Part shown: piece after piece, positions 4,376 to 20,275 of the stretch | Numbering within the stretch: position 1 is the stretch's first letter | Layout: each line of letters opens with the position of its first letter | DNA from: Krischvirus LF73P4 | Strand: one strand, 5' to 3' | Sequence record: OZ035795.1 | Length of the DNA: 64,000 bases | Notes under the pieces: model-generated | The model's input: the letters and a program-made list of their open reading frames with translations, nothing else | Databases searched by the model: none | Told to the model about the DNA's origin: nothing | Made by a program: the position numbers and the translations under genes

Positions 4376-4400
4376 CTCTAAAAATTGATTGGAGGTTGTT

Positions 4401-5773: not shown

Positions 5774-7436
5774 AACCTTGCGCTATCAAAATATAATGAG
5801 CGTGGGTGCTGAACCTGTTGAGATTCAGCTAGACGGATTCAAAAAGACACTAATCACTGGTGTTAACGGTGCTGGTAAATCAACAATGATCGAGGCGCTT
5901 TGCTTTGTGTTGTTCGGTAAACCGTTTCGTAGTATCAAGAAAGGCCAATTGATTAACAGCGTCAACAAAAAGAAACTGTTAGTCGAAGTCTGGTTTGAAC
6001 TGGACGGGAAAGAGTTTTATATAAAACGTGGTCAAAAACCGGAAGTATTCGAAGTGCATCGCGACGGTCAAAAGATCGACGAGAGCGCAAGCACCAAAGA
6101 CTTTCAGGAATATTTTGAAGGTATCATAGGCATGAACCTAGCCAGCTTCAAACAGATCGTTGTTTTAGGCACTGCTGGTTATGTTCCGTTTATGAGTCTT
6201 CCGGCAGCGGGTCGCCGTAAACTGGTCGAGGATTTGCTTGATATTGCTACGCTAGGCGAAATGGATAAACTGAATAAAGCGTATGTGCGCGAGATTACCC
6301 AGAATATCCAAATGCAGGAAATGAAAGCTAATCACGTTCAGCAACAAATCAACACTCATAAAAAGTACATAGAAGACGCTAGCAAGGCGAGTGCCGAGAA
6401 TCTCCAGCGTTTACAGAATATGTATGATAAAGAGGTAGAATCGGCTAAAGCATTTAAAGCCGAAGAAACGCGCTTGACCGATGAGCTATTGGCTGTTGTT
6501 ATGCCGGAAGATCCTAGCGCGGTATTGGCTAAAATTAATACTGCTATCGCACAGATTGGTGCGCAGATCCAGAACTTTGACCGTGTTATCCATATGCACG
6601 AGAAAGGCGGGATCTGTCCTACGTGCACACAACCGATCATTCAGGGTAATGATCAGACTGTACGCGAACAAAAAGCACAAGCGGAACATAAACTGTTTCT
6701 GATTGACGAGAAACGCGTAGAATACGCCGAGAAAGCAAATTCTTTCCAGGCAGCACAAACTAAGGTCTTGGAAATTAAACGCGCTATAGAGTCACAGAGA
6801 GCGAATTTAACGGCATCTGTAGGTCGTGCTAAACAGATCCAGAAAGCAATGCAGGAATTGCAAAAAGAAAGGGTTGACAATTCCGAAGAACTTGCTAAAC
6901 TGGAACACGAACTGGTAGAGATTACTAATGAAAAATCAAAGCTAGTTCTTGAAAAATATCACCGTGGATTTGTAACAGAAATGTTGAAGGATTCCGGTGT
7001 TAAGGCGTCTATCGTCAAGAAATATATTCCATATTTCAATGATCGGATTGCGTATTATCTTGATATTATGGAAGCGGATTATATCTTTACGCTAGATGAA
7101 GAGTTTAACGAAACAATCAAATCACGGGGGCGTGAATCGTTTTCGTATACATCGTTCAGTCAAGGCGAAAAGGCACGTATTGACCTTGCGATGCTCTTTA
7201 CATGGCGTGATGTTGCTGGTAAAGTATCTGGTACTAATATTTCTTTGTTGGTACTCGACGAAATTTATGATGGGGCTACGGACGTTCAGGGCGTAAAAGC
7301 ACTTGATTCCATCATTGACAAGTTAGATGATAACGTGTATATTATCAGCCATCGTGACCATAACCCTGATGATTTTAGCCGTCATCTCAAGATGGTTAAA
7401 CGTGGGCGATTCACTGAAATGAATGTTAACATTTGA
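5754..7436 (+). CDS. 46: recombination endonuclease subunit gp46 (Rad50/SbcC-like ATPase)
   Basis: 560 aa from ATG 5754; Walker A GVNGAGKST, long coiled-coil middle, CPTC zinc hook, C-terminal ...FSQGEKARIDLAMLF...LVLDE match recalled T4 gp46. Confidence 0.9.
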   Translation: MAKLNFKTLRYQNIMSVGAEPVEIQLDGFKKTLITGVNGAGKSTMIEALCFVLFGKPFRSIKKGQLINSVNKKKLLVEVWFELDGKEFYIKRGQKPEVFEVHRDGQKIDESASTKDFQEYFEGIIGMNLASFKQIVVLGTAGYVPFMSLPAAGRRKLVEDLLDIATLGEMDKLNKAYVREITQNIQMQEMKANHVQQQINTHKKYIEDASKASAENLQRLQNMYDKEVESAKAFKAEETRLTDELLAVVMPEDPSAVLAKINTAIAQIGAQIQNFDRVIHMHEKGGICPTCTQPIIQGNDQTVREQKAQAEHKLFLIDEKRVEYAEKANSFQAAQTKVLEIKRAIESQRANLTASVGRAKQIQKAMQELQKERVDNSEELAKLEHELVEITNEKSKLVLEKYHRGFVTEMLKDSGVKASIVKKYIPYFNDRIAYYLDIMEADYIFTLDEEFNETIKSRGRESFSYTSFSQGEKARIDLAMLFTWRDVAGKVSGTNISLLVLDEIYDGATDVQGVKALDSIIDKLDDNVYIISHRDHNPDDFSRHLKMVKRGRFTEMNVNI

Positions 7437-7653
7437 CAGAGTAACGCAGCCGGAGTTAGAATTGTATACCTTAATCAATCTATATTCCGGTGAAGAATAT
7501 GTAGTTAGTATGGGGGACATGAAAAACAGCATATACAGCGATGCAGACATAACAAAAATGTTGTCTTGTCGTCATCATGAGTTTATGCTGGTCCCCAAAT
7601 TTGATAAACTTGATTACCCTGATGCTGGGGTTGCAACAAACTTTAGAACGTGA
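7423..7653 (+). CDS. hypothetical protein
   Basis: 76-aa ORF overlapping the gene 46 stop. Confidence 0.4.
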   Translation: MLTFDRVTQPELELYTLINLYSGEEYVVSMGDMKNSIYSDADITKMLSCRHHEFMLVPKFDKLDYPDAGVATNFRT

Positions 7654-7683
7654 TATACTGATTTTATTTTGGAGATTAATATT

Positions 7684-8061
7684 ATGACTACTTCCGCAAA
7701 CCTGGCTAAAATTACTGTAGCAGACATTCAGAACAAGAAAACCAGCCTCGAATTTGACCGAGCAATGAACAAGATCCGTAAAGCGTGGGTACTGCAAATG
7801 CCGGAAAGCGAGAAAGCTAAAATGAAGGTTATCCCGCAGCAAGCACGCTTTGAACTGTACGCGCATATTGATGATATGGTGCAAAAAGAATGGATCGCTG
7901 CAATGCGCAAGTATTACGATGATTCAATTGCTAAAGGCGCTAAAACTATTCGAGGTAAAGATATTCTCGAAAAGGGTTATCAGATTGACACTGATGAACT
8001 GCTGATTGAAGCCGCTAGCGTAGTAGTAACTCGTCTGATCGCAATTGCTGATGGGAAGTGA
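7684..8061 (+). CDS. hypothetical protein (occupies the T4 rpbA position between 46 and 45)
   Basis: Track ORF 7669..8061; ATG 7684 after GGAGATTAA; positional inference only. Confidence 0.4.
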   Translation: MTTSANLAKITVADIQNKKTSLEFDRAMNKIRKAWVLQMPESEKAKMKVIPQQARFELYAHIDDMVQKEWIAAMRKYYDDSIAKGAKTIRGKDILEKGYQIDTDELLIEAASVVVTRLIAIADGK

Positions 8062-8065
8062 TAGA

Positions 8066-8443
8066 ATGAAACGTATGAGCTTAAAAGAACAAATGCTATT
8101 CATCCTACAAAATAGTAAATTATGTCATATTCCGTTTGACTATATCAAAGATAATGATGTAATGAACTACCGTCACGGGATAGAGTGTATTGAGTGGTAT
8201 TTTGTCCTAGATAAATTTGTTGATGATGTGATTCGTCGTAAACTTGCGTTTGATGTTCGTGGTGATCTGGTATATCTCGACGGAAAAAAGACCGCAAAGA
8301 ATCCTGTTACTGTCTATGCTCTGCAACAATACTTGACAGCTTACATTGGATTGAAGTATACTCACTCATCCGATAAGGAAGCCGAGAAAAAATTTATCGA
8401 AAGAATGCTAAAGATTCAAAATGAGCACGAAGTAAACCCGTAA
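8066..8443 (+). CDS. hypothetical protein
   Basis: Track ORF 8045..8443; alternative ATGs at 8051 and 8066. Confidence 0.4.
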   Translation: MKRMSLKEQMLFILQNSKLCHIPFDYIKDNDVMNYRHGIECIEWYFVLDKFVDDVIRRKLAFDVRGDLVYLDGKKTAKNPVTVYALQQYLTAYIGLKYTHSSDKEAEKKFIERMLKIQNEHEVNP

Positions 8444-8473
8444 TTAATTGATTAACATGATAAAGGTGATTTG

Positions 8474-9160
8474 ATGAAACTGACTAAAGAAACCATTGCT
8501 ACCCTGAAAAACTTTTCCGCTATTAACCCAGGTATCATCCTGAAAAAAGGAAACGTCCTAATCACCAAAAACATGACAAACGTTGTATATGGTGAAGCGA
8601 CTCTGAATCAAGAACTGGAACACGAAATCGGGATCTATGATCTTAACTCTTTCCTGGGCATTCTGAATCTGGTGGGCGATGAAGCAGATATTACGGTTGA
8701 TAACCGCACCGGAAACATTCGTGTGTCTAATGATCGTCTGAAAATTAATTATCCTGGTGCTAGTGCTGCTGCTATCGTATCACCGAAAGGCCGAGTTACT
8801 CCACCTGCAAGCGATGTAGATTACGAACTGAGCAACGACGATCTGAAACAGCTTATGAAAATGAGCAATCAGCTTAAAGTGGATCGCCTTGAATTTCTAC
8901 CGATTGATGGTCGTCTGATGATCAAAGGCTGGGAAGAGATTGACAAAAATAATCCTAATGAGATGTTTTGTCTTGATATGGGCGAATATACCGGAACCGC
9001 AGACTTCCATTTCTTTATTCGTAAAGATAACATGAAACTGGTTGCTACTGACTTCGGCGATTACAAACTGAGCTTCACTCGCCGTAAGGCTGTATGGCTG
9101 GCAAGTGAAACCGTATCTTATATGATCGCGTGTGACCTTGACTCCAGCTACACCGACTAA
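8474..9160 (+). CDS. 45: sliding clamp gp45
   Basis: 228 aa; MKL.K.T.A.LKNF..IN.GI.LK ... IYDLN.FLGIL.LV.D.A.I matches recalled T4 gp45. Confidence 0.9.
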   Translation: MKLTKETIATLKNFSAINPGIILKKGNVLITKNMTNVVYGEATLNQELEHEIGIYDLNSFLGILNLVGDEADITVDNRTGNIRVSNDRLKINYPGASAAAIVSPKGRVTPPASDVDYELSNDDLKQLMKMSNQLKVDRLEFLPIDGRLMIKGWEEIDKNNPNEMFCLDMGEYTGTADFHFFIRKDNMKLVATDFGDYKLSFTRRKAVWLASETVSYMIACDLDSSYTD

Positions 9161-9192
9161 TATAATGTTTGTGGGGAGTGTAAATACTCCCC
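9138..9192 (+). promoter_or_regulatory. early promoter TTGACT-N17-TATAAT followed by stem-loop GGGGAGT-gtaaat-ACTCCCC
   Basis: Perfect -10 with 17-nt spacer inside 3' end of gene 45; 7-bp hairpin immediately downstream. Confidence 0.5.
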
Positions 9193-9225
9193 GTTTTAAT
9201 GATGTAATTTGTGAGAGGTGATTAT

Positions 9226-10200
9226 ATGCTGAGTGTTAATGAAAATGAGTTTCAGTGGGAACAGAAATACCGTCCGAAATCAATTTCTGAATGTATTCTG
9301 CCGGAAGCAGATAAAAAGATCTTCGCGCAGATTGTTAAGCAAGGCCGAATCCCTTCTATGATCCTGCATAGCCCATCGCCGGGTACTGGTAAAACAACCG
9401 TTGCTAAGGCGCTTTGCGAAGATGTGGGTGTTGATTATCTGTTTGTTAACGGCGCAGATTGTAAGATTGATTTTATCCGCGATGAGATTACACGCTTTGC
9501 GCAGAGTGTATCACTCGATGAAGAAAAACGAGAAAAAGGCAAAGTTGTTATTATCGATGAGTATGACCGAGCGGGGTTGGCTGACGCTCAAAGACACTTG
9601 CGTAGTTTCTCTGAGGCATACTCAAACAACGTGACATTCATTATCACAGCAAACGATCTAGAAGGTATTATCCCAGCGTTACGATCTCGATTTGATCCCA
9701 TCACGTTTGGATCTCCGACTAAAGATGATCAGCTTCGCATGATGAAAGAAATGATCGTCCGGTGTAAAGCAATTCTTGATAAAGAAGGTGTGCCAGTAGA
9801 AGAAATGCGCGTATTAGCGGAACTGGTTAAACAGAACTTCCCAGACTTCCGACGCGTAATGAAACTTTTGGACCGCTACGCTAAACATGGTAAAATTGAT
9901 GCTGGCGTATTGAGCATGGTTATCGAAAGTAGCAATACCGAAGTAACCGATGTGGTGGAAGCACTTAAAACTAAACAGTTTGCTAATGTGCGTAAACTTG
10001 CACCGCGATATACCAATACATACGCTCAATTTGTCAAGAAACTTTATAATGAGTTGTATACTCAAGTTAAGCCAGCTTCTATTATTCGTCTGACCGAGAT
10101 TATCGGTGAAAATAATCAGATGTTTGCGCACGCGGCTGATAAAGAGATTCACATTGTCTTTTTGTTAATGCAATTAATGGTTGAATTGGAGTTCGTATAA
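9226..10200 (+). CDS. 44: clamp-loader large subunit gp44 (AAA+ ATPase)
   Basis: ATG 9226; EQKYRP....ECILP, Walker A HSPSPGTGKTTVAKALC, DE Walker B (IIDEYDR), sensor ...ITAN match recalled T4 gp44. Confidence 0.9.
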   Translation: MLSVNENEFQWEQKYRPKSISECILPEADKKIFAQIVKQGRIPSMILHSPSPGTGKTTVAKALCEDVGVDYLFVNGADCKIDFIRDEITRFAQSVSLDEEKREKGKVVIIDEYDRAGLADAQRHLRSFSEAYSNNVTFIITANDLEGIIPALRSRFDPITFGSPTKDDQLRMMKEMIVRCKAILDKEGVPVEEMRVLAELVKQNFPDFRRVMKLLDRYAKHGKIDAGVLSMVIESSNTEVTDVVEALKTKQFANVRKLAPRYTNTYAQFVKKLYNELYTQVKPASIIRLTEIIGENNQMFAHAADKEIHIVFLLMQLMVELEFV

Positions 10201-10778
10201 TGTTAGGTCAATTTTTCGGTGAAGATGATACACAATTAAACGAGCATGAAATTGCATGGCGCTCTCGTGATTGGGAAAAGGTGTCTGAATTAGCTGACAC
10301 ATTCACCGAGAAAACCGACAATGCATTATTTGCTCTGATGGATCATATCACCTTAGATAAACAGCGCGTTAATGTTGGGAACAATTCTGCATATAACCAG
10401 AGATGGATTAATACCGCTCTTTCCCAGCACGCAGATTGCCTATATAGCGCGTATGTGATGAATTTAATCGGTCATGGCCTCCCAGATCAAATGCATTTTG
10501 ATTATCTCTTACAGAGTATTTCTAAGGGGAAACGATACGGTAAATGGGCTAAACTAACAGAAGAATTGGACCAAAAATTGGTTTTAATGGCAGTGGCGAA
10601 AGCATATTGTGTAAATATGGATGACGCCCGGTTTTATCTCGATTTGGCTAATGAAAAGGGATATATGGACAAGTTATTGAAGCACATTAAACCGTATGCG
10701 ACCGATGAACTTTTGGCGGGTGTTACTAAGAATCAGACAGAAAGGAAACGACTTAAAAAGATTATAGAAAGGTGGTAA
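10200..10778 (+). CDS. 62: clamp-loader small subunit gp62
   Basis: 192 aa, TAATG overlap with gene 44, size and position as in T4. Confidence 0.75.
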   Translation: MLGQFFGEDDTQLNEHEIAWRSRDWEKVSELADTFTEKTDNALFALMDHITLDKQRVNVGNNSAYNQRWINTALSQHADCLYSAYVMNLIGHGLPDQMHFDYLLQSISKGKRYGKWAKLTEELDQKLVLMAVAKAYCVNMDDARFYLDLANEKGYMDKLLKHIKPYATDELLAGVTKNQTERKRLKKIIERW

Positions 10779-10779
10779 A

Positions 10780-11142
10780 ATGATTGAAATTAATTTGATT
10801 AGTCCTGAAAACTTCCTTAAAATTAAGGAGACTTTAACCCGCTGCGGCATTGCCAACAATCGAGACAAGACGCTGTATCAGTCTTGTCATATTCTCCAGA
10901 AGAAAGGGCGCTATTACATCGTTCATTTCAAGGAGTTGTTGAAATTAGATGGTCGTAGTGTTAAAATGACGTGGGAAGATGAATTACGCCGTAATAACAT
11001 TGCAAAACTTCTGGCGCAGTGGAATCTGTGTACCCTGATTGATAGTGATTTTGAAACTACCGAAGTTAATAATTTCCGTGTATTGTCTTTCAAACAGAAA
11101 GAAGAGTGGACGCTGATCGAGAAATATCAGATCGGACGATAA
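10780..11142 (+). CDS. regA: translational repressor RegA
   Basis: 120 aa; MIEI.L..PE.FLK.KETLTR.GIAN..DK.LYQSCHILQKKG.YYIVHFKE matches recalled T4 RegA. Confidence 0.85.
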   Translation: MIEINLISPENFLKIKETLTRCGIANNRDKTLYQSCHILQKKGRYYIVHFKELLKLDGRSVKMTWEDELRRNNIAKLLAQWNLCTLIDSDFETTEVNNFRVLSFKQKEEWTLIEKYQIGR

Positions 11143-11163
11143 GATACTGATGGGATAGGGGTA

Positions 11164-11192
11164 TTGACAAACTAAGTCGATTCCCCTATAAT
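11164..11192 (+). promoter_or_regulatory. early promoter TTGACA-N17-TATAAT upstream of gene 43
   Basis: Consensus hexamers, 17-nt spacer. Confidence 0.6.
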
Positions 11193-11224
11193 GAGTGTCT
11201 TTCGTAAGTGAAGGAGTTTATATT

Positions 11225-13903
11225 ATGTATTTTCTGTCATGTGAGCGAGTGGGTGATAAGATCTACGAGCGTTATATTGATGATGCTGGACAAGAACAAG
11301 AGCGTTACGTTGAATATACGCCAACTTTATTTCATCATGCCGCGCCCGGTATGGTTACGAATTATAAAGATATCTATGGCAAGCCTTGCATTGCTAAAAA
11401 ATTCCCATCTATGAACGAGGCCAACAAATGGCGTAAAAAGATGGGAGAAATGGGGCAGGAGGCACTAGGGATGGATGATTTTATCATCTCCTATCTGTCC
11501 GATACATATAAAGGCGAGATTCGATATGACCGAAATAAAATCCGTGTAGCCTGGGTTGATATTGAGGTCACTGCACCGGAATTTCCTAAACCAGAAGAAG
11601 CGAAATATCCTATCGATGCTATTACGCATTATGATTCCGTACATGATCGTTTCTTTGTATTTGATTTGAAAGGAAAAAACGGTGAAATCTGGGAAGCAAG
11701 CAAGTCTATTCTTCGACCTGATATTGTAGAGCGCGTTGTTTATAACGTCTATGACACAGAAGATGAATTGCTGTTAGAATACATCCGATTCTTTGAGGAA
11801 AACCGACCCGTTGGTTTCACTGGCTGGAACACAGAAACATTCGATATTCCATATATCATTAAACGTATCAGTAATAAGTTCGGAAGTAGAACCGCTAACC
11901 GTCTAAGCCCATGCGGTAAGATTAAATCCCGAATCTCGCAGGATGATTTTGGCAACGAGCGTGAAGCATTTACGATCATGGGGATCGAAAGCCTTGATTA
12001 TATTGACCTGTACAAGAAATTTAGCTTTACGACTCAACCAACATATGCATTAGATTATGTTGCTGAATATGAGACCGGAATCGGTAAGGTTGATTATGAT
12101 GGTCCGTTAAAGAAATTGCGTGATGACAACCATCAACTTTACATCGATTATAACATCGGCGACGTTGATCGTGTGCTGGCGATTGATAAAAAGCGTGGAT
12201 TTATCGATCTTGTGTATAGTCTATGTTTCTATGCAAAGATTAAATTTAACCATGTTTATAACCCGATGAAAGTATGGGATGCTATTATCTTCGGATCTCT
12301 GAAAGCAGAGGGTAAAGTAGTACCGGAAAATAAGATACAGCCTAAGCAGACTTATCCTGGCGCATTCGTAAAAGAACCTGTACCGAATGCTTACCGTTGG
12401 ATGATGAGCTTTGACTTAACAAGTCTGTACCCATCTATTATTCGACAGGTTAATATTTCTCCTGAAACAATCGCTGGATCTTTTGATGCTGCACCGATGC
12501 ACGAGTATATCAATAAAACTGCACCACGTCCGAGTGATGAGTATTCTTGCTCGCCTAACGGATGGATGTATAGAAAAGATATTCACGGTATCGTACCGAT
12601 TGAGATTAAAAAGGTATTCGATCAGCGTAAGCAGTACAAAAACATGATGTTGGCATGTGATCGCAATGCTGAACTCTGTAAAGCGATTCTACACGATGAA
12701 AATCATGTTTATGGGGGAACCATTAGCTATAGCGTTGAAGTGCGTCACGACTTCGATGAAGCGTTTAAATCGATGCTTTCTGAATTGAGCAAAGATGCCT
12801 TAGAGAAATTGCTGGAAGAATGTAAAGACGAGTCGATCTTGTGCAATACAAACCAGCTTTCTCGAAAAGTTTTGATCAACTCCCTTTATGGTGCGTTGGG
12901 GAATCCTAAATTCCGTTTTTATGATCTCCGTAACGCTAGTGCGATCACACTGTTCGGTCAGCTTGCAATTCAGTGGATTGAGCGTAAGATTAACGAATAC
13001 TTAAACGAGCTTTGCGGAACGACTGATTTTGCATATGTTCGTTATTGTGATACTGACTCCGTTTATGTGCTGGTTAACAATGTTATTGATAAGGTTGGCG
13101 GGGAAGACCGTTTCGACGATACCGAAAAACTTGTTGACTTCCTTGATAATTTCGGTAAACATCGAATGGAACCTATTATCGACAAGGGATATCGCGAGTT
13201 ATGCGAGTACATGAACAACTATGAGCACTTGATGTTTATGGACCGTGAGGCAATTGCTGGTCCTCCGTTGAAATCTGCGGGTATCGGTGGATTCTGGACT
13301 GGTAAAAAGCGTTATGCTCTTAATGTTTGGGATATGGAAGGAACGCGCTTTGCTGAACCTAAGCTAAAAATCATGGGCTTGGAAACGCAACGTAGCTCCA
13401 CCCCTAAAGCATGTCAGAAATCACTGAAAGAATGTATTCGCCGTATGTTGCAGGAAGGTGAAGAGTCATTGCAGGAATACTACGGTATTTTTGAGCAAGA
13501 ATTTAGAAAACTTGACTATCTTGATGTTGCTGCGGTATCATCTGCAAACAACCTACAGAAATACAGCGATTCAAACGGGTATCCGATTAAGGGTTGTCCG
13601 TATGCGGTTAAGAGTGTATTGTGTTATAATCGTAATGCTCGAAAATTCGGACTAGACCCGATTCGTGAGGGTGAGAAGGTTATGATTGTACCGCTTAAAG
13701 ACCGAAATCCGTTTGGAGAAATCTGTTTTGGTTGGTTGTCTGGTACTCGTATTCCACCAGAAATTGAATCAGAGGTGTTGAAGTGGTTGGACTGGCCTTT
13801 GTTGTTTAATAAGACTTTCGTCAAACCACTGGAGAACATTACCACGGCTGCAAAGCTGCAATATGAAAAAGTTGCTTCACTGACTGACCTGTTTGACATT
13901 TAA
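11225..13903 (+). CDS. 43: DNA polymerase gp43 (family B)
   Basis: ATG 11225 after AAGGAG; ...ERYIDD.G.E; exo motifs; SFDLTSLYPSIIRQVNISPET; NSLYGALGN; YCDTDSVYV match recalled T4 gp43. Confidence 0.95.
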   Translation: MYFLSCERVGDKIYERYIDDAGQEQERYVEYTPTLFHHAAPGMVTNYKDIYGKPCIAKKFPSMNEANKWRKKMGEMGQEALGMDDFIISYLSDTYKGEIRYDRNKIRVAWVDIEVTAPEFPKPEEAKYPIDAITHYDSVHDRFFVFDLKGKNGEIWEASKSILRPDIVERVVYNVYDTEDELLLEYIRFFEENRPVGFTGWNTETFDIPYIIKRISNKFGSRTANRLSPCGKIKSRISQDDFGNEREAFTIMGIESLDYIDLYKKFSFTTQPTYALDYVAEYETGIGKVDYDGPLKKLRDDNHQLYIDYNIGDVDRVLAIDKKRGFIDLVYSLCFYAKIKFNHVYNPMKVWDAIIFGSLKAEGKVVPENKIQPKQTYPGAFVKEPVPNAYRWMMSFDLTSLYPSIIRQVNISPETIAGSFDAAPMHEYINKTAPRPSDEYSCSPNGWMYRKDIHGIVPIEIKKVFDQRKQYKNMMLACDRNAELCKAILHDENHVYGGTISYSVEVRHDFDEAFKSMLSELSKDALEKLLEECKDESILCNTNQLSRKVLINSLYGALGNPKFRFYDLRNASAITLFGQLAIQWIERKINEYLNELCGTTDFAYVRYCDTDSVYVLVNNVIDKVGGEDRFDDTEKLVDFLDNFGKHRMEPIIDKGYRELCEYMNNYEHLMFMDREAIAGPPLKSAGIGGFWTGKKRYALNVWDMEGTRFAEPKLKIMGLETQRSSTPKACQKSLKECIRRMLQEGEESLQEYYGIFEQEFRKLDYLDVAAVSSANNLQKYSDSNGYPIKGCPYAVKSVLCYNRNARKFGLDPIREGEKVMIVPLKDRNPFGEICFGWLSGTRIPPEIESEVLKWLDWPLLFNKTFVKPLENITTAAKLQYEKVASLTDLFDI

Positions 13904-13947
13904 GATAAAGTGTGTATAATGGCGGGTGTTGGGTGACGATACCCGCC
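13893..13947 (+). promoter_or_regulatory. early promoter TTGACA-N16-(TG)TATAAT followed by stem-loop GGCGGGT...ACCCGCC
   Basis: Hexamers overlapping gene 43 stop; 7-bp stem just after -10. Confidence 0.5.
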
Positions 13948-13964
13948 AATGTGAGAAATATATT

Positions 13965-14153
13965 ATGAGAGACATTGAAAAGATTAAACGTGAACGTGAG
14001 GAAGGCATAGAGCATTTCAAGAAAGTTCACGGAAATCACAGCAACGAAGTATTTGTGACGATCAATGTTGATGCGATGAAAAAGTTAATTCAAGAGCACT
14101 ACAAAGATCGAATAACAATGAAGCAATTAAAGTATTACGGATTAACTGAATAG
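13965..14153 (+). CDS. hypothetical protein
   Basis: Track ORF 13926..14153; ATG 13965 downstream of promoter/stem-loop. Confidence 0.4.
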   Translation: MRDIEKIKREREEGIEHFKKVHGNHSNEVFVTINVDAMKKLIQEHYKDRITMKQLKYYGLTE

Positions 14154-14164
14154 AGGTATTAATA

Positions 14165-15235
14165 ATGTCTGTACTGGAAAAACTGAAAAAGAACTCTACC
14201 CTGAAAACTACTGCGGTACTGTCTAAATCCAGCTTCTTTAACGAAAAAACAAATACTCGCACTAAGATCCCGATGCTGAATATTGCGTTTTCAGGTGATC
14301 TTAAAAAGGGCTTTCAATCTGGTCTGATTTTCTTTGCTGGTCCGTCTAAGCACTTTAAATCAAACATGGGATTAACTTGTGTTAGTGCATACATGAAACA
14401 GAATCCTGATGCGGCGTGTTTGTTCTTTGATTCTGAGTTCGGTATTACACCCGCTTATCTTGAATCTATGGGTGTAGATCCTGATCGCGTGGTGCATGTT
14501 CCAATCAAGAACATCGAAGAACTTAAATTTGAAATCATGAACCAGCTTGAGCAAATTACCCGTGAAGATAAAGTGATCATCTTTATTGACTCAATCGGTA
14601 ACTTAGCAAGTAAAAAAGAAGTTGAAGACGCGATTAATGAGAAATCCGCACAGGATATGACGCGAGCTAAAGCACTTAAAGGCTTGTTCCGTATGGTGAC
14701 GCCATATCTGACTATGAATGATATCCCGTGCATCGCTATTAACCACACTTACGAAACGCAAGAAATGTTTAGTAAGACCGTTATGTCCGGCGGTACGGGC
14801 GCGATGTATTCAGCCAATGAAGTTTTCATTATTGGTCGTCGTCAGCAGAAAGAAGGAACCGAAATTACTGGTTATGATTTTATCCTGAATGCGGAAAAAT
14901 CACGAACCGTTAAAGAAAAATCTAAGTTCCCGATTAGCGTAACATTTAGCGGTGGTATCGATCCTTATTCCGGCTTGCTGGAATTGGCTGTAGAGTTAGG
15001 CTGGGTAGTGAAACCGTCAAACGGCTGGTATTCTCGTTCAATCCTAAATACCGAGACCGGAGAGATGGAAACCGAAGAACGCAAGTTCCGTGCTAAAGAA
15101 ACCAATAGCATTGAGTTCTGGAAACCACTTCTGACAAACGATAAGTTTAACGAAGCAATCAACGATCATTATAAGCTGGGGCAAGTGATCAGCGACGAAG
15201 CAGTTGACAAAGAAATCGAAGATATGTTAGCATAA
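14165..15235 (+). CDS. uvsX: recombinase UvsX (RecA-like)
   Basis: 356 aa; ...KFFNEK...RTKIPM.NIA.SG; GPSK.FKSN; DSEFGITPAYL.SMGVDP.RV.H; CIAINHTYETQEMFSKTVM.GGTG match recalled T4 UvsX. Confidence 0.9.
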   Translation: MSVLEKLKKNSTLKTTAVLSKSSFFNEKTNTRTKIPMLNIAFSGDLKKGFQSGLIFFAGPSKHFKSNMGLTCVSAYMKQNPDAACLFFDSEFGITPAYLESMGVDPDRVVHVPIKNIEELKFEIMNQLEQITREDKVIIFIDSIGNLASKKEVEDAINEKSAQDMTRAKALKGLFRMVTPYLTMNDIPCIAINHTYETQEMFSKTVMSGGTGAMYSANEVFIIGRRQQKEGTEITGYDFILNAEKSRTVKEKSKFPISVTFSGGIDPYSGLLELAVELGWVVKPSNGWYSRSILNTETGEMETEERKFRAKETNSIEFWKPLLTNDKFNEAINDHYKLGQVISDEAVDKEIEDMLA

Positions 15236-15247
15236 CAATGGTAGTAA

Positions 15248-15272
15248 AGGGGCTACGTGCCCCTTTTTCATA
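15248..15272 (+). terminator. intrinsic terminator after uvsX
   Basis: AAAGGGGCTACGTGCCCCTTTTTC: GC stem plus T-run. Confidence 0.5.
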
Positions 15273-15290
15273 TCTAGAGAGGATTATATT

Positions 15291-15608
15291 ATGGATAAGA
15301 AACCAACAAGTTTAGAAGAAGCACACAGCTTGATTCAAGAAGCAATGAAGACAGTTATCCAGGAACTGATAATTGTTGATGAAGAGGGAGAACATCATAT
15401 TGTCTATATTCATAATGTTGAATACGATCCAGACACTAAAGGTATTATGGTCGACTACTCCACGCCGTCAGATCGTGATGTGGTATATCCACACGTCATT
15501 AAGGCGTTAACCGCGCAGATCAAAGAAGCAGAAGAAAAGTTGAAAAAAGAAACTTTCTGGTATAAACTCAAGACCTTTGTTATGCGTGTAGTTGGGGGCT
15601 ATGTATGA
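15291..15608 (+). CDS. hypothetical protein (between uvsX and 41, where T4 has gene 40)
   Basis: 105-aa ORF, overlaps gene 41 start; positional inference only. Confidence 0.45.
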   Translation: MDKKPTSLEEAHSLIQEAMKTVIQELIIVDEEGEHHIVYIHNVEYDPDTKGIMVDYSTPSDRDVVYPHVIKALTAQIKEAEEKLKKETFWYKLKTFVMRVVGGYV

Positions 15609-17017
15609 TTAAAACTATCTTTTCACAGTTGATTTACAATGGCGCATTCTTTACGAATGTATGGCCTCACCTTAAAGCGGACTACTTCACCGAAGACGAA
15701 GAAAAACTGATTTATAAGCTGATTAAAAAGCACGTAGACGAATATTCCAATATTCCTACGCCAACAGCATTACAGATTGCTTTAGACAAGGAGAGAGGCA
15801 ATCAGACAACATATGAAGGGGCGAAAACTCTTCTTGATTCGCTTGAGAATACACCGGAAGACCTTGATTGGTTAATGAAGGAAACCGAAAAATTTATTCG
15901 TGACCGCGCTATGTATAATGCAATGTCACGGGCGCTAGAGATTCAGGCGAACGCACAACTACCAAAAGAGAAACAGAATAAGAAATTGCCTAGTGAGGGC
16001 GCTATTCCTGAAATTATGCAGGAAGCACTATCCATTACGTTTGATTCTGATGTAGGTCATGACTGGTTTAATGACTTTGAAAAACGATTCTTGCTATATC
16101 AGACTAAGGCGAATAAGATCCCATTTAAGCTGCCGATGTTGAATAAAATCACGAAAGGAGGGGCGGAAAGAAAAACGCTAAATGTGTTGCTTGCTGGTGT
16201 AAACGTTGGTAAATCGCTTGGATTGTGTTCTCTTGCTGCGGATTATATGGAATGTGGTTATGATGTATTGTATATCTCAATGGAGATGGCAGAGCATGTC
16301 GTAGCCAAACGTATCGACGCAAACTTGCTTGACATTACATTAGATGAATTGGATAATGGTAATGTTTCTTTTGCGGAATATTCCGCACGCATGAAGCGTG
16401 TTAAGAATAAGAAGATCGGGGATCGTCCGGTTGGAAAATTGATGATCAAGCAGTATCCGACTGGTGGCGCGAACTCCAATCACTTTGAGGCGTTAATGAA
16501 TGAATTGCGACTCAAGAAACAGTTTAAACCTGATGTTGTGATTGTTGACTATCTTGGGATTTGCGCATCGTCTCGCTTGCGTGTATACTCTGAAAATAGT
16601 TACACACTAGTTAAGGCGATTGCGGAAGAACTGCGAGGATTTTTTGTTAAGTGGGATGTTGTTGGTTGGACTGCGGCACAGACTACCCGCGCTGGTTGGG
16701 ATGCTTCCGACCTTAACATGAGTGATACCGCTGAATCAGCAGGTCTTCCGGCTACAGCCGACTTTATGTTGGGTGTTATCGAAACCGAAGACCTGGCTAA
16801 AATGGGCGTCCAACTCATGAAGCAGATCAAGTCTCGTTACGGTGATAAGAACTATTATTCACGGTTTAACGTTGGTGTGAAGAAAGGCAATCAGCGTTGG
16901 TATGAAGTACCAAACCAGATCGCAGATCAGGAGAACGCACAAGTTAAACCACAAAGCGCACAGCAAGCCGAGAAACGCGAAAAACTCGACGAGCTAGCAA
17001 ATACCATGACTTTCTAA
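15605..17017 (+). CDS. 41: replicative DNA helicase gp41 (DnaB-like)
   Basis: 470 aa; KIPFKLPMLNKITKGGAE..TLNVL.AGVNVGKSLGLCSLAADY; DYLGIC; SRYGDKN match recalled T4 gp41. Confidence 0.9.
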   Translation: MIKTIFSQLIYNGAFFTNVWPHLKADYFTEDEEKLIYKLIKKHVDEYSNIPTPTALQIALDKERGNQTTYEGAKTLLDSLENTPEDLDWLMKETEKFIRDRAMYNAMSRALEIQANAQLPKEKQNKKLPSEGAIPEIMQEALSITFDSDVGHDWFNDFEKRFLLYQTKANKIPFKLPMLNKITKGGAERKTLNVLLAGVNVGKSLGLCSLAADYMECGYDVLYISMEMAEHVVAKRIDANLLDITLDELDNGNVSFAEYSARMKRVKNKKIGDRPVGKLMIKQYPTGGANSNHFEALMNELRLKKQFKPDVVIVDYLGICASSRLRVYSENSYTLVKAIAEELRGFFVKWDVVGWTAAQTTRAGWDASDLNMSDTAESAGLPATADFMLGVIETEDLAKMGVQLMKQIKSRYGDKNYYSRFNVGVKKGNQRWYEVPNQIADQENAQVKPQSAQQAEKREKLDELANTMTF

Positions 17018-17026
17018 TAAAATGCG

Positions 17027-17045
17027 CCCTACGGGGCGCTGGTGA
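17027..17045 (+). terminator. stem-loop after gene 41
   Basis: GCGCCCTACGGGGCGC hairpin; weak U-tract. Confidence 0.35.
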
Positions 17046-17067
17046 ATGATTTGATAGGAGATATAAC

Positions 17068-17703
17068 ATGATCGCTAATGCTTTACCGCCAAAATGGATC
17101 GTAAGTCGCTTTTATACTCTCAAGGAAGGTAACGCACCTGATGGTCGTCCGATCCGAGATCTGTTTCTGGAGATGACTACAGCCGAAGCACAGTTTTATA
17201 ATGATCTGACAGACGATAAGCCATTTCTCGTAAATTCGGTGGACCTCGATGGCAATGTCACATCAATCATCACACATGGTGGGGGAGTGAAAAATATTAC
17301 TTCTCTGCGTGATCACGGTTGGGAAATTGCTTGTGTATTTCCTGCGGATGTACGCGGATTCTTTGATGAGGTATCTGATATTAAAGTAAATGCACTGGAA
17401 CCATATGACGAGATCCCACCACTGAAAGAAGAAAAAGAGTTGACACCGGAAGATGTAGATAGTACACTACACCCCGACCTATTTAAGAAGATTAGCGGTT
17501 TATGGACTGTTACCCTGTATCCAACCGCATTAGGTCTAGAATTGGGTATGCCAACTTATTCTGATATTGATAATTGGACTAAGCATATTGATAAAGATGT
17601 TGAAAAACAGCGAAATAATGCTAAAATGCAACTTAAAGAGAAACGCAAAGATCTTGAACGACAACTGAAAGAAACAAAACGTTTGCTTTCTACATTCGCT
17701 TGA
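17068..17703 (+). CDS. hypothetical protein
   Basis: 211-aa ORF between 41 and 61, coiled-coil C-terminus. Confidence 0.5.
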   Translation: MIANALPPKWIVSRFYTLKEGNAPDGRPIRDLFLEMTTAEAQFYNDLTDDKPFLVNSVDLDGNVTSIITHGGGVKNITSLRDHGWEIACVFPADVRGFFDEVSDIKVNALEPYDEIPPLKEEKELTPEDVDSTLHPDLFKKISGLWTVTLYPTALGLELGMPTYSDIDNWTKHIDKDVEKQRNNAKMQLKEKRKDLERQLKETKRLLSTFA

Positions 17704-17733
17704 TCTATAATGAAACTCTAAGGAGACTATATT

Positions 17734-18111
17734 ATGAAAAATATGATTACGCCGGAAGATGTAGCATTCAAAACCGCATTCAACGGAGATATTCTTATTT
17801 TTATCGACGGTAAACACGCCGGAATGATTGAACAGGAAGGTCGCTGGGGTGTTGCTGAACTATATAACGTGGCGGGTGTAGAAGGTCATAAAACAGCACT
17901 TGTTTTCTTGTCGGATAAAGATCAAATGCGTCGAAAAATTGCTGCGCTCTATAATGAAGCAGTATATTTCTACGAACCGTTTCATCGTATTAAAACGATC
18001 TCCCGCGTGACTCGAAAAGATGTTAATGCTTGTGTTATCAAGATTGTAGAGAATCAGGATAAACTGACGAAAGACCAGATTGTTGACTTACTGAAAGAGA
18101 TTATTCTATGA
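17734..18111 (+). CDS. hypothetical protein
   Basis: 125-aa ORF, TATAAT -10 about 25 nt upstream. Confidence 0.5.
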   Translation: MKNMITPEDVAFKTAFNGDILIFIDGKHAGMIEQEGRWGVAELYNVAGVEGHKTALVFLSDKDQMRRKIAALYNEAVYFYEPFHRIKTISRVTRKDVNACVIKIVENQDKLTKDQIVDLLKEIIL

Positions 18112-18284
18112 TTGGATTTAAACAGTTTGTTGAAGAAAATAAACTCAAAGAAGATATGACCGCTGGCGATGCTGGCGGCAATCCTGAGAAGATCGCAGCA
18201 GGTGAAACGAGCGGATCTATTACCAATCGTGGACCTAGTGTAGCGGGTAAAGAAAAACGCAAAAAGGAGAAAGACGGTGCTTAG
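18108..18284 (+). CDS. hypothetical 58-aa protein
   Basis: Not in track; ATGA overlap with upstream stop; MIGFKQFVEENKLKEDMTAGDAGGNPEK... Confidence 0.3.
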   Translation: MIGFKQFVEENKLKEDMTAGDAGGNPEKIAAGETSGSITNRGPSVAGKEKRKKEKDGA

Positions 18285-18291
18285 TATCATC

Positions 18292-18435
18292 ATGTTTATC
18301 GTTGGCTTGCTGTCCGCTATTATCGGTGTTGTTATTTTCGGATTATCTGGACACAAAACAAAAACAGAAAAGTTATCCGAGATCACAATGTATGTTGGTG
18401 TAGTTCTCATTCTGTTGTCGGTGGCGCTTAAATGA
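18292..18435 (+). CDS. hypothetical 47-aa membrane peptide (two hydrophobic segments)
   Basis: Not in track; MFIVGLLSAIIGVVIFGLSGHKTKTEKLSEITMYVGVVLILLSVALK; stop overlaps next ATG. Confidence 0.3.
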   Translation: MFIVGLLSAIIGVVIFGLSGHKTKTEKLSEITMYVGVVLILLSVALK

Positions 18436-18635
18436 TTACGATGAAATGTCTTAAAAGCACATATGCACTTTTTGAAGCCGGAAAAGAATATGAATTTACA
18501 GAACTTGACCCGGTAGGCCGTTTTCGTGTATTCTCTTACACATCGCCAGATGGTAGTGTCTACAAATTTGGATTAGATGAGAACGGAGAGAATGAAAATG
18601 AAAGTGTAGGAACTTTCATGAAATTTGAGCTATAA
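18432..18635 (+). CDS. hypothetical protein
   Basis: 67-aa ORF. Confidence 0.4.
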   Translation: MITMKCLKSTYALFEAGKEYEFTELDPVGRFRVFSYTSPDGSVYKFGLDENGENENESVGTFMKFEL

Positions 18636-18644
18636 GAGGTTATT

Positions 18645-19673
18645 ATGATTTACTACGCAGATTATGAAATAGCGGAAAAAGCCATATACGGCGAACGAAA
18701 TTTTAAACGGTTGCATACTAGCTCATTTACGCTGGTCTGTAGTTGTCCGATCTGCGGTGACTCAAAGAAAAATCATACTCAAGCGCGATTCCGTATCTAT
18801 ACCTATAAGGATAGTTTGCGTTGTGGTTGTTTCAACTGTAACTACAATCAGCCGTTAGGTGAATTTCTCAAACAGTATAAACCGGACCTATTCAGGGAAT
18901 GGCTTATGGAGAGACGGAAGGAACAAGGCGACCACAAGAACACCACGTTCAAGCCACTGAAAAAGGTAGAAAAGCCGGAGATTAAGAAAGTGCAAACATT
19001 GCCTTTCTGCGAGAGATTAGATACTCTTCCGGCTAATCATCCTATAATAAAGTATGTCAGTGATCGTTGCATCCCTCACGATAAATGGGATCTTCTGTAT
19101 TTCACGAGAGAATGGCAAAAGGTAGCAAATCACATTAAGGCTGATACTTTCAAGAACCCACAACCTGAACCGCGTTTAGTGATTCCTATCTTTAACCGCG
19201 AGAACAAGATAGAATCCATTCAGGGGCGAGCATTGAGAAAGGATTACGGAAAGACCAAATATATGACGATTAAAACTCATGAGTTAGCGAGTAAGGTCTA
19301 TGGTCTTGAACGCGCCGATCCGAGTAAGCCAGTGTATTTCTTAGAAGGTCCGATCGATTCATTGTTTATTGATAACGGGTGTGCAATTACTGGCGGTACT
19401 TTGGGATTAGATGAAATACCTTTCCCAGACCAGCGAGTGTTTGTACTTGATGCGGAACCACGGTCTGCCGATACAATGCACCGACTGGAAAAGTTTATCA
19501 ATGCAGGGGAAAAGATTGTATTGTGGGACCGTTGCCCGTGGCATTCTAAAGACGTTAACGCCATGATTCAGGACGAGGGCGCTACACGCGACCAGATCAT
19601 GGAATATATCAAAGAGAACACCGTACAAGGTCTGATGGCTAAAATGCGGTTTATGAAATATTGTAAATTTTAA
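18645..19673 (+). CDS. 61: DNA primase gp61
   Basis: 342 aa; N-terminal zinc-binding CPICGDSKK..H...C..C, TOPRIM-like C-terminal half; follows 41 as in T4. Confidence 0.85.
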   Translation: MIYYADYEIAEKAIYGERNFKRLHTSSFTLVCSCPICGDSKKNHTQARFRIYTYKDSLRCGCFNCNYNQPLGEFLKQYKPDLFREWLMERRKEQGDHKNTTFKPLKKVEKPEIKKVQTLPFCERLDTLPANHPIIKYVSDRCIPHDKWDLLYFTREWQKVANHIKADTFKNPQPEPRLVIPIFNRENKIESIQGRALRKDYGKTKYMTIKTHELASKVYGLERADPSKPVYFLEGPIDSLFIDNGCAITGGTLGLDEIPFPDQRVFVLDAEPRSADTMHRLEKFINAGEKIVLWDRCPWHSKDVNAMIQDEGATRDQIMEYIKENTVQGLMAKMRFMKYCKF

Positions 19674-19687
19674 TTAATGAGGTGAAT

Positions 19688-20206: not shown

Positions 20207-20213
20207 AAATTAG

Positions 20214-20272
20214 TTGACACTAATCTATAATGGTTTTATTATGCCTCCCGTCGAAAGATTGGAGGCTTTTTT
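20214..20272 (+). promoter_or_regulatory. promoter TTGACA-N17-TATTAT overlapping terminator-like hairpin GCCTCC-N12-GGAGGC plus T6
   Basis: Hairpin 3' arm GGAGG doubles as Shine-Dalgarno for ORF 20276. Confidence 0.45.
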
Positions 20273-20275
20273 ATT

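Follow-up and report, generated by a model that had tools for sequence, protein, structure and literature searches.

A Krischvirus genome segment without the T-even cytosine replacement genes that retains gp56: probable use of ordinary cytosine

In phage T4, the dCMP hydroxymethylase gene 42 and the glucosyltransferase genes beta-gt and alpha-gt lie between genes 43 and uvsX (42, beta-gt) and between genes 55 and 47 (alpha-gt). An earlier note on a 64-kb stretch of Krischvirus DNA (the whole of which is called the window here) had observed that these genes are missing at both positions and that a gp56-like dCTPase is nevertheless encoded, which raises the question of what state the phage DNA is in and why the enzyme is kept. 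The observation was confirmed and was already known; of the interpretations attached to it, unmodified DNA was supported, whereas modification genes elsewhere and an implied dCTPase paradox were not, and the methyltransferase it pointed to is not a cytosine-C5 enzyme. With high confidence, we conclude that the phage has no T-even cytosine replacement and uses ordinary cytosine; it would keep gp56 for pool management and combine site avoidance with methyltransferases.

Judged by its sequence, the window is part of the genome of an RB49-type (Krischvirus) T4-like coliphage. It matched these phages (RB49, Phi1, JSE, FL04, GEC-3S, TB34) at 98–99% nucleotide identity, and the region 11000..20500 matched FL04, RB49, Phi1 and 55 other Krischvirus records at the same level. 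The closest complete genome, FL04 (162.6 kb), was 98.2% identical over window positions 1..24653 and 90.6–98.4% identical over the remaining aligned blocks. The window (59% A+T) covers 39% of a ~164-kb genome, and for the rest the absence of genes was deduced from relatives. The gene order 55, a-gt.5, a-gt.4, 47 ... 43, ORF025c, uvsX, 40, 41 ... 61, 56, modB is common to the window and RB49/Krischvirus, as is the cassette of three genes that separates 8 from 9. Both lack gene 42 as well as the glucosyltransferase genes. RB49 carries an HNH-AP2 endonuclease between a-gt.4 and 47, whereas the window has none there and its own lies after gene 39 (26492..27055). Gene 36 was joined to the gene 2/4/53/5 block via a ~100-bp inverted repeat, an arrangement seen in none of 58 phage records and in none of 8 contig contexts (out of 24 read).

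The interval between gene 43 and uvsX was composed as follows.

11225..13903, + strand: gene 43, DNA polymerase (55% identity to T4 gp43, residues 4–897; RB49 annotation agrees)
13893..13920, + strand: early sigma-70 type promoter, TTGACA-16-TATAAT (all 12 consensus bases matched)
13915..13953, + strand: stable G+C-rich hairpin (MFE −23.7 kcal/mol, z −5.2)
13965..14153, + strand: 62-codon ORF of the RB49ORF025c family (annotated in RB49 and FL04; phrog_12120, E 1e-41)
14165..15235, + strand: uvsX recombinase (64% identity to T4 UvsX)

The noted distance of about 260 bp proved correct: gene 43 ends at 13903, uvsX starts at 14165, and the spacer is 261 bases, compared to ~3.6 kb in T4, where imm.1, imm, 42, beta-gt and segA occupy the interval. 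The spacer is not empty: the promoter, the hairpin and the ORF lie in it. The promoter, whose −35 hexamer overlaps the end of gene 43, was identical in RB49 (annotated there as a hypothetical early promoter) and FL04, and was one of six perfect sigma-70 sites seen in the window versus 0.08 expected. The hairpin begins right behind the −10 hexamer, and none of 200 shuffles folded equally well; the terminator scan did not call it, and it has no T-run. It would be located within the 5′ leader of the ORF025c/uvsX transcript. The ORF, the sole gene between 43 and uvsX, had homologues at ≥95% in 58 Krischvirus records and weak partial matches only in 13 other records, and gave no match in Pfam or NCBIfam.

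The second T4 position showed a comparable reduction.

2191..2724, + strand: gene 55, late sigma factor (61% identity to T4 gp55)
2708..2941, + strand: homologue of T4 a-gt.5 (tblastn E 2e-7; a-gt.5 in the RB49 annotation; a Pfam DUF5491 match falls under the curated cut-off)
2943..3230, + strand: homologue of T4 a-gt.4 (tblastn E 3e-12; Pfam DUF2654, 80 bits)
3321..4346, + strand: gene 47, recombination nuclease subunit (56% identity to T4 gp47)

The order noted earlier, gene 55 followed by two small ORFs and then 47, was confirmed with its coordinates. T4 has a-gt.5, a-gt.4, a-gt.3, a-gt.2, mobB, alpha-gt and 47.1 in this interval, and the window has the a-gt.5 and a-gt.4 homologues only. 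Because the small ORFs are these homologues, the 55–47 synteny is kept, and alpha-gt with its mobile neighbours alone is missing.

Homology searches extended the absence beyond these intervals. With T4 gp42, alpha-gt and beta-gt as queries, tblastn against the window and complete FL04 returned a sole match, the thymidylate synthase paralogue td (E 0.009); denB, alc, ndd and arn of T4 had no match in either, and a phmmer --max search of the full set of 2192 stop-to-stop ORFs gave none for 42, alpha-gt, beta-gt, denB, alc or ndd. Another interval of interest lies between rIIB and gene 52.

30449..31450: rIIB
31465..32495, + strand: interval with three small ORFs
32488..33849: gene 52

T4 carries denB and ndd here, and the window instead holds three small ORFs. 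Neither denB nor ndd gave a match in this interval at E 0.01 or better, nor by phmmer --max; 31465..31791 and 32133..32495 belong to PHROGs of unknown function, and 31837..32130 had no Pfam match. In contrast to 42, alpha-gt, beta-gt, denB, alc, arn and ndd, all absent from the window/FL04, other T4 genes were present as orthologues, namely 56 (49%), cd (56%), denA (49%), td and frd, and the flanking replication genes are syntenic with those of T4. Our own search also found pseT and rnlA. Among the genes retained by FL04 are cd, td, frd, denA and a homologue of Dam, and its annotation lists the further nucleotide-precursor genes nrdA/B, gene 1 and tk. Interval content and homology searches thus show that the RB49-type lineage is without the T-even cytosine replacement system. 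This gene pattern, without hmC genes and with gp56 kept, has already been described for RB49-type phages and is nothing new in kind: Krischvirus was scored dCTPase+, hmC−, denB−, denA+, ndd−, alc− (PMC12115623), and the RB49 type was listed without gene 42 (Petrov 2010, Table 4; PMC2993671).

The gp56-like gene reported earlier turned out to be a full-length orthologue of T4 gp56 with intact acidic motifs.

19688..20206, + strand: gene 56 orthologue, all-alpha nucleoside-triphosphate pyrophosphohydrolase (T4 dCTPase/dUTPase), assigned by homology to T4 gp56

The protein was 49% identical to T4 gp56 over its full length (E 2.5e-50) and matched Pfam PF08761 (dUTPase_2; 24.8 bits vs a cut-off of 22.9) and phrog_173 (E 5e-37); its gene adjoins gene 61, an order close to that of T4, which has dam between 61 and 56. 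Residues D80, E81, E84, D124, E127, E131 and D134 were invariant in 120 homologues. The AlphaFold model (pLDDT 95.9) was all-alpha, and its best Foldseek matches, weak at E 0.7 or worse, were DCTPP1 and the MazG-like dUTPase DR2231. The motifs E-x2-D-x2-HF and KN-x2-N-x2-RQ-x2-GY align with the dimeric dUTPase of C. jejuni (1W2Y), and the model is all-alpha like the NTP pyrophosphohydrolases 1W2Y, DR2231 and mammalian DCTPP1; at only 12–17% identity, these matches do not tell substrate preference.

A dCTPase in a phage without hmC had appeared paradoxical, but is not: among the T4-related phages tabulated by Petrov, only four giant Aeromonas/Vibrio ones are without a recorded gene 56, which is treated there as the phage dUTPase and a source of dUMP (PMC2993671). 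Phage records with gp56 homologues (1399) outnumbered those with gp42 homologues (1033), also when sorted by organism name (Escherichia, 614 vs 348; Klebsiella, 276 vs 137). Pseudotevenvirus (RB43) and Slopekvirus (KP15, KP27) likewise have gp56 without gene 42; gp56 of KP27 and of the Pseudotevenvirus JC03 shares W54, C64, A77 and F117 with that of the window, although identity is only 51–54% and genome organisation differs.

A gp56 of full T4-like dual dCTPase/dUTPase strength, with dCDP/dCTP passing mostly via dCMP deaminase into dTMP and dCTP regenerated by host kinases, is an unlikely alternative. In its favour, the protein has the same catalytic residues as T4 gp56, nothing in the sequence points to a lost dCTPase, the genes cd, td and frd exist alongside it, and in a 59% A+T genome the need for dTTP exceeds that for dCTP. 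However, T4 dCTPase depletes dCTP until cytosine DNA cannot be made (PMC6071114), and an equally strong enzyme would keep a genome built with cytosine from replicating. Since a dCTPase of T4 strength would starve such a phage of dCTP, the activity would have to be low or kinetically balanced, as is probably the case for Krischvirus gp56.

The cassette between late genes 8 and 9 had been suggested as possibly relevant to cytosine modification.

56460..56487, + strand: perfect sigma-70 promoter (exact TTGACA-N16-TATAAT match) preceding the inserted three-gene cassette
56517..56774 and 56762..57091, + strand: two small ORFs, cassette genes 1 and 2 (phrog_16603 and phrog_12630, function unknown; no match in Pfam or NCBIfam)
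57091..57930, + strand: SAM-dependent amino-methyltransferase (motif I VLDLCAGIGRL, motif IV NPPF)

That this enzyme makes 5mC or N4mC in place of hmC is very improbable. In favour of such a role, a perfect early-type promoter of its own precedes the cassette within a late-gene block, the PHROG of the enzyme (phrog_3820, E 4e-117) is named 'DNA methyltransferase', and a 2021 survey ascribes a 'DNA-cytosine methyltransferase' to either the RB43 or the RB49 group (PMC8056088). Homologues occurred in 289 phage records, those listed coming from Krischvirus and phages of Klebsiella, Cronobacter, Citrobacter, Enterobacter, Morganella, Aeromonas, Dickeya and Ochrobactrum, with KP15 and Aeromonas 65.2 among them; they include T4-like phages of genera reported without gene 42, and no Tequatrovirus or Mosigvirus was among the listed matches. 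The homologues of the NPPF methyltransferase in KP15 and in further T4-like phages of Klebsiella, Cronobacter and Citrobacter are ~49% identical to it. However, NPPF behind motif I marks amino-methyltransferases, whose targets are adenine N6, guanine N2 or glutamine N5. N4-cytosine methyltransferases usually have SPPY/F. The Pfam matches (MTS, Eco57I, N6_Mtase) did not include the C5-cytosine methylase family, which together with NPPF ruled out a C5-cytosine methylase; the nearest solved sequences were the rRNA-type PH1948 and RsmC, and the RB49 annotation notes similarity to rRNA guanine-N2-methyltransferase. The enzyme is at most relevant to anti-restriction in general, not to an hmC-like pathway.

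Published data on the DNA itself agreed with ordinary cytosine. HpaII and NheI cut RB49 DNA (PMC4041780), and HpaII does not cut CCGG when the site is methylated at C5 or N4; TB34 DNA contained canonical nucleosides only, with no modified nucleoside detectable by HPLC-MS (PMC13390438). In the Slopekvirus KP27, the DNA is reportedly refractory to several restriction enzymes (PMC5219037). Among hexamers with ≥5 expected occurrences, 11 of 53 palindromes were absent from the window versus 12 of 3575 non-palindromes (Fisher p 3e-15), and FL04 behaved similarly (13/60 versus 6/3943). This avoidance is extreme compared to a 56-kb T4 sample, in which none of 40 palindromic hexamers was absent. Avoidance of 6-bp restriction palindromes fits DNA exposed to restriction; it reflects past exposure, not the present chemical state of the DNA. 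Support for unmodified DNA thus comes from the missing hmC module, the unmodified RB49 and TB34 and the strong site avoidance.

A contrary report describes 5-hmdC and T6-like alpha-gentiobiosyl-mdC in the DNA of the Krischvirus SAP, which was sensitive to the type IV enzyme BrxU; its authors did not find the pathway gene (PMC13390438, 2026), and no genetic basis is visible to us. Read at face value, and with all catalytic residues of gp56 kept, it would mean that Krischviruses hypermodify cytosine by a pathway non-homologous to that of T-even phages, with gp56 a true dCTP-clearing enzyme as in T4. We regard this as very unlikely. The differences between SAP and unmodified TB34 (Table S5 of that report) are mostly 1-bp indels, which would frameshift DNA polymerase, clamp, UvsX, topoisomerase, NrdB, gp47, gp7 and gp4; 5 of 7 indel sites checked in the window lay within A or G homopolymers of five to seven bases, and both C>T sites within it lay in CCGGG. 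The differences are thus sequencing artefacts, and the two genomes effectively identical. The modification profile of SAP is that of seven Tequatrovirus phages in the same collection, and SAP DNA was digested least by BrxU in vitro (PMC13390438), which in our view fits a mixed preparation. RB49 and TB34 are unmodified, and site avoidance would be needless under blanket modification.

The weakest alternative, hydroxymethylase and glucosyltransferase genes in this phage but beyond the window, draws on the modest coverage of the genome and on a rearrangement unseen in relatives, so that the genome is not a simple FL04 copy, but has scarcely any likelihood, since searches of the complete FL04 genome (tblastn, and phmmer --max on its six-frame ORFs) found only td, gene 42 is absent throughout the genus according to two published surveys (PMC12115623, PMC2993671), and the partner genes denB and ndd are missing at their T4 position within the window.

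Taken together, the evidence favours a Krischvirus with ordinary cytosine, in which gp56 would be kept for a conserved role in pool management. The enzyme would hydrolyse dUTP/dUDP, and possibly some dCTP/dCDP, to monophosphates, which would keep uracil out of DNA and feed dUMP to thymidylate synthase, directly or via dCMP deaminase. Protection from restriction would probably come from site avoidance, Dam and the second amino-methyltransferase rather than from hmC.

The 261 bases separating the end of gene 43 (13903) from the start of uvsX (14165) are not empty. The T4 interval at this position holds imm.1, imm, gene 42, beta-gt and segA, whereas the window carries the following elements:

13893..13920: sigma-70 promoter matching the consensus at 12 of 12 positions, with its −35 hexamer overlapping the end of gene 43
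13915..13953: hairpin (−23.7 kcal/mol, z −5.2, by folding)
13965..14153: conserved 62-codon ORF of the RB49ORF025c family (ORF025c), after the hairpin

This promoter-hairpin-ORF stretch was identical or near-identical in RB49 and in FL04, the nearest complete Krischvirus genome. ORF025c matched 58 Krischvirus records at a level of at least 95%, with weak partial matches only elsewhere, and found no match in Pfam or NCBIfam. Perfect TTGACA-N16-18-TATAAT sites occurred six times in the window against 0.08 expected. A repeat search of the two intergenic regions with a seed of 9 returned nothing, the hairpin being visible by folding only. The promoter-early stem-loop (PeSL) of RB49 and Phi1 consists, as its description reads, of a terminator followed by a promoter (PMC2839356; PMC4122927). 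A strong sigma-70 promoter and a G+C-rich stem-loop are both present around ORF025c, but here the stem-loop lies 3′ of the promoter, and the PeSL texts (PMC2839356, PMC4122927) do not name the 13893..13953 locus. Because its parts are arranged differently from those described in print, the locus is at most a possible PeSL.

Downstream of gene 55 (2191..2724), the two small ORFs are homologues of T4 a-gt.5 and a-gt.4 and are followed by gene 47, whereas T4 a-gt.3, a-gt.2, mobB, alpha-gt and 47.1 are missing between genes 55 and 47. Both the coordinates and the comparison with T4 confirmed the earlier note's claim that gene 42 and the glucosyltransferase genes are lacking at their T4 positions while a gp56 homologue is present. 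On the other side of gene 55, a 489-residue ORF (681..2150, RB49ORF044c) lies between 55.2 and gene 55, where T4 has small 55.x ORFs only; its N-terminal part weakly matched a DEAD/DEAH helicase, and its PHROG match is of unknown function.

The 9.5 kb around these loci (11000..20500) matched 82 phage records, 58 of them at a query coverage of at least 80%, with the highest nucleotide identity to FL04 (99.1%), followed by KMB43 and kaaroe (98.7%) and RB49 (98.5%). All matching records whose taxonomy was read belonged to Krischvirus, and identity to RB49 across the core replication genes places the window in the same genus. The RB49 record annotates every element discussed here, namely gene 43, a hypothetical early promoter, RB49ORF025c, uvsX and a ‘gp56 dCTPase’. 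The RB49 gene order does not hold over the entire window, which leaves gene content unaffected. Aligned to FL04 in five blocks of 90.6–98.4% identity, the window first follows FL04 14939..60818 in the same order and then, in the opposite orientation, FL04 144694 to 126080. The switch, at window 45390..45499 (context 43853..47755), joins tail-fibre gene 36 to a block of an ORF and genes 2, 4, 53 and 5, and falls inside a ~100-bp element whose FL04 copies form an inverted repeat (60709..60818 and 144585..144694); SNPs within this repeat make the crossover visible. The gene 36 junction was spanned by none of the 58 phage records and by none of the eight contig contexts shown out of 24 read, and it represents either a real ~84-kb inversion through inverted-repeat recombination or an assembly misjoin at the repeat.

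The part of the window most divergent from FL04 is 24653..27052, with 90.6% identity over gene 39 and unaligned ends. In FL04 the topoisomerase gene is shorter and is preceded by an additional ORF (39596..40324), whereas the window and RB49 share a single 607-codon gene 39. Directly after this gene, the window encodes a 187-residue endonuclease with HNH_3 and AP2 domains (26492..27055), where FL04 and RB49 have other ORFs. The HNH-AP2 endonuclease of RB49 lies between a-gt.4 and gene 47, where the window (90 bases only) and FL04 have none. The window enzyme has the look of a mobile endonuclease that occupies another site than in RB49.

To cover the possibility, left open by the earlier note, that the modification genes lie elsewhere, the window and the complete FL04 genome (162,587 bp) were searched together with the T4 genes of the hydroxymethylcytosine (hmC) system. 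By tblastn, T4 gp42 matched only its paralogue, the thymidylate synthase td, and did so weakly (E 0.009; phmmer E 0.12); the best matches of alpha-gt and beta-gt (tblastn E 0.78, phmmer E 0.25) both fell at unrelated genes; and denB, alc, ndd and arn gave no match at E 0.01 or better. The same held for phmmer run with all filters off against 2192 stop-to-stop ORFs of at least 40 residues from the window and FL04, which returned no match for gene 42, alpha-gt, beta-gt, denB, alc or ndd. The single marginal phmmer match of arn (E 0.007–0.015) lay in an opposite-strand frame inside the gene 7 coding region and was taken as chance. The interval from rIIB to gene 52, which harbors denB and ndd in T4, contains three unrelated small ORFs with no named function in the window. 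The option of modification genes elsewhere is thus unsupported by the window and the complete FL04 genome, where td was the only match to gp42.

Homologues of cd (56% identity), denA (49%), frd, td, pseT and rnlA were found by tblastn against the window plus FL04, and the FL04 annotation lists nrdA/B, gene 1 and tk. FL04 also encodes, outside the window, a homologue of T4 Dam (47% identity); for MotA, the T4 middle-transcription activator, no homologue was found in the window or FL04 at E 0.01 or better. The FL04 thymidylate synthase ORF, which lies beyond the window (FL04 72861..74093), is 410 codons long, and T4 Td exon 1 aligned to it in two pieces separated by ~135 in-frame codons, which suggests an in-frame insertion rather than a group I intron as in T4.

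These absences agree with the literature. Gene 42, denB and alc are restricted to the T-even phages, JS98, RB69, CC31 and the Acinetobacter and some Aeromonas phages (Petrov et al. 2010, PMC2993671); a 2025 survey scored Krischvirus as dCTPase+, hmC−, denB−, denA+, ndd− and alc− (PMC12115623); and the RB43 and RB49 groups were noted in 2021 to keep only the DenA and dCTPase-dUTPase homologues, which raised the same puzzle as the note (PMC8056088). At the level of DNA, HpaII and NheI cut RB49 DNA, unlike T4 DNA (PMC4041780), and HPLC-MS of Krischvirus TB34 detected canonical nucleosides and no modified one (PMC13390438). Given these surveys and the RB49 and TB34 data, the note's finding is a correct rediscovery of what was already known.

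An independent indication came from restriction-site avoidance, scored on palindromic hexamers with at least five expected occurrences under a maximal-order Markov model. In the window, 11 of 53 such palindromes were absent and 16 had an observed/expected ratio below 0.2, compared with only 12 absent among 3575 non-palindromic hexamers (Fisher p 3e-15). FL04 behaved similarly (13 of 60 palindromes absent and 23 of 60 below 0.2; 6 and 23, respectively, of 3943 non-palindromes), whereas none of the 40 palindromes scored in T4 (56 kb) was absent or below 0.2. The avoided palindromes in both the window and FL04 were 6-bp ones containing G/C. HindIII, AgeI, AfeI, ScaI, PmlI, PvuII, SacII, XhoI, SphI, NaeI and KpnI had no site in all 162.6 kb of FL04 (9–38 expected), and sites for EcoRI (1 against 47.5 expected), BamHI, BspEI, StuI, NcoI and PstI were nearly absent; GGCC stood at 0.44–0.45 of expectation. 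There was no avoidance of several other palindromes, including the GATC-containing TGATCA and AGATCT, and GATC itself had an observed/expected ratio of 1.06–1.09 here versus 0.33 in the T4 sample. HpaII, NheI and DraI sites were likewise not avoided, which fits the published digests. Site avoidance is a known general alternative to blanket base modification. Its extreme extent here, a property read from the genomes themselves, argues that the RB49-type lineage evolved with DNA open to type II enzymes. We found no paper on such avoidance in RB49-type phages. Taken together, the absence of hmC genes, the RB49 digests, the TB34 HPLC-MS and the site avoidance support the option of unmodified DNA that the earlier note had offered.

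The note had also raised the possible relevance of a methyltransferase encoded in a cassette between genes 8 and 9, which comprises three ORFs and is also present in RB49:

56460..56487: perfect sigma-70 promoter in front of the three-ORF cassette
57091..57930: 279-residue methyltransferase, with motif I (VLDLCAGIGRL) at residues 68-78 and NPPF at 132-135

The protein has the gamma-type order, in which the SAM-binding motif I precedes (D/N)PP(Y/F). It matched the Pfam families MTS (E 1e-9), Eco57I (E 2e-6) and N6_Mtase, HemK- and RsmC-type models of NCBIfam at scores well short of the cut-offs, and PH1948 and RsmC as the nearest solved sequences. With motif I followed by NPPF, and no C5-cytosine methylase family among its 9 Pfam and 15 NCBIfam matches, assignment as a DNA cytosine-C5 methyltransferase was rejected. 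Homologues of ~42–50% identity occurred in 289 phage records; those listed included KP15 and other Klebsiella phages, Cronobacter, Citrobacter, Enterobacter and Morganella phages, Aeromonas 65.2, and Dickeya and Ochrobactrum phages, and none was from Tequatrovirus or Mosigvirus. Judged by its motifs, the product is a predicted amino-methyltransferase (candidate substrates DNA adenine, rRNA or protein), an enzyme that would be unable to make C5-substituted cytosine, and its suggested relevance to cytosine modification finds no support. Overall, the interpretation in the note was partly supported.

The gp56 homologue (19688..20206) aligned over its full length with T4 gp56 (residues 1-171, 49% identity, E 2.5e-50) and was 56% identical to gp56 of T2, ~54% to that of KP27 (Slopekvirus) and 51% to a Pseudotevenvirus protein. 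The gene lies directly after gene 61, whereas dam intervenes in T4. Its product matched Pfam PF08761 (dUTPase_2; 24.8 bits against a cut-off of 22.9) and phrog_173, and retains D80, E81, E84, D124, E127, E131, D134, H137 and F138, all invariant in 120 homologues. Among PDB sequences, the gp56-family profile matched only the C. jejuni dimeric dUTPase 1W2Y, weakly (E 0.049), with aligned parts comprising the motifs E-x2-D-x2-HF and KN-x2-N-x2-RQ-x2-GY; phmmer of gp56 against the same sequences gave no match. AlphaFold with an alignment produced an all-alpha model (pLDDT 95.9); the single-sequence run was unusable (pLDDT 43). The window protein is, from its sequence, an intact gp56-family member that may or may not still hydrolyse dCTP. 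No published assay of the Krischvirus enzyme came to light.

In a 12-sequence alignment, S6, W54-V55-P56, C64, A77 and F117 were common to the four sequences from gene-42-less phages versus eight from Tevenvirinae and Acinetobacter phages. Among the 120 homologues this pattern broke down: S6 occurred in 20 sequences of mixed type, W54/C64/A77/F117 marked just a 10-member clade, and C64 and F117 were also present in Aeromonas phage 31, a gene 42 carrier according to Petrov (PMC2993671). These residues were rejected as signs of an altered specificity because they are confounded with phylogeny. Krischvirus gene 56 itself exists as two sharply bounded alleles, one in 38 records with at least 99% protein identity to the window and the other in 20 records at 60–80%. 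For MIZ3 (69% protein identity; gene at 1501..2019 of the compared stretch), nucleotide identity to the window was 95–100% in the flanks and 66–76% over 19688..20187, essentially the entire gene. T4 and T2 gp56 are likewise just 70% identical. In T4, the neighboring SegF endonuclease drives marker exclusion at gene 56, whereas no endonuclease gene adjoins gene 56 in the window.

In the established T4 pathway, gp56 converts dCTP/dCDP and dUTP/dUDP to monophosphates, after which dCMP goes to gp42 or, via Cd, to dUMP, and dUMP goes to Td (PMC2993671, PMC8056088). In T4, the strength of the dCTPase suffices to block the synthesis of cytosine-DNA (PMC6071114). The Krischvirus precursor pathway would then be that of T4 minus gp42, with the conserved need probably residing in dUTPase/dUDPase activity and in providing dUMP to a genome of 59% A+T. 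A dCTPase of T4 strength would be self-defeating in a cytosine-DNA phage; one would therefore expect either that gp56 has moved its preference towards dUTP or that kinases and Cd regulation offset its dCTPase.

The alternative is that some Krischviruses, possibly including the phage of the window, hypermodify cytosine by means of enzymes that bear no relation to gene 42 or to the known glucosyltransferases, a proposition that we regard as very improbable. It derives from the Krischvirus phage SAP, whose DNA was reported in 2026 to contain 5-hmdC and alpha-gentiobiosyl-mdC (PMC13390438). Its corollary, that gp56 truly clears dCTP, as it does in T4, and that the pathway genes hide among ORFs of unknown function, merits equally little credence. 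The unmodified TB34 is 99.96% identical to SAP, and no pathway genes were found (PMC13390438); the differences listed in Table S5 are mostly 1-bp indels, the rest being mostly C>T at proline codons (PMC13390438). The SAP indels would frameshift DNA polymerase, the clamp, UvsX, topoisomerase, NrdB, gp47, gp7 and gp4; of seven indel positions checked in the window, five sit in homopolymers of A or G that are five to seven bases long; and both C>T positions located there (9381 and 45968) lie within CCGGG. This is a pattern of error rather than biology: the listed differences are sequencing artefacts, and the two genomes are therefore effectively identical. Moreover, the SAP modification profile is that of seven Tequatrovirus phages from the same collection, and SAP DNA was the least digested by BrxU (PMC13390438). 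We infer that the SAP preparation was mixed or mislabelled. The sole published claim of a hypermodified Krischvirus thus rests on a genome indistinguishable from an unmodified one, which calls for caution in hunts for a hidden pathway.

If the ordinary reading is true, namely that the RB49-type phages are T4 relatives with cytosine-DNA, little is changed; their ordinary cytosine is the reason for their use as unmodified controls and for their ability to transduce plasmids.
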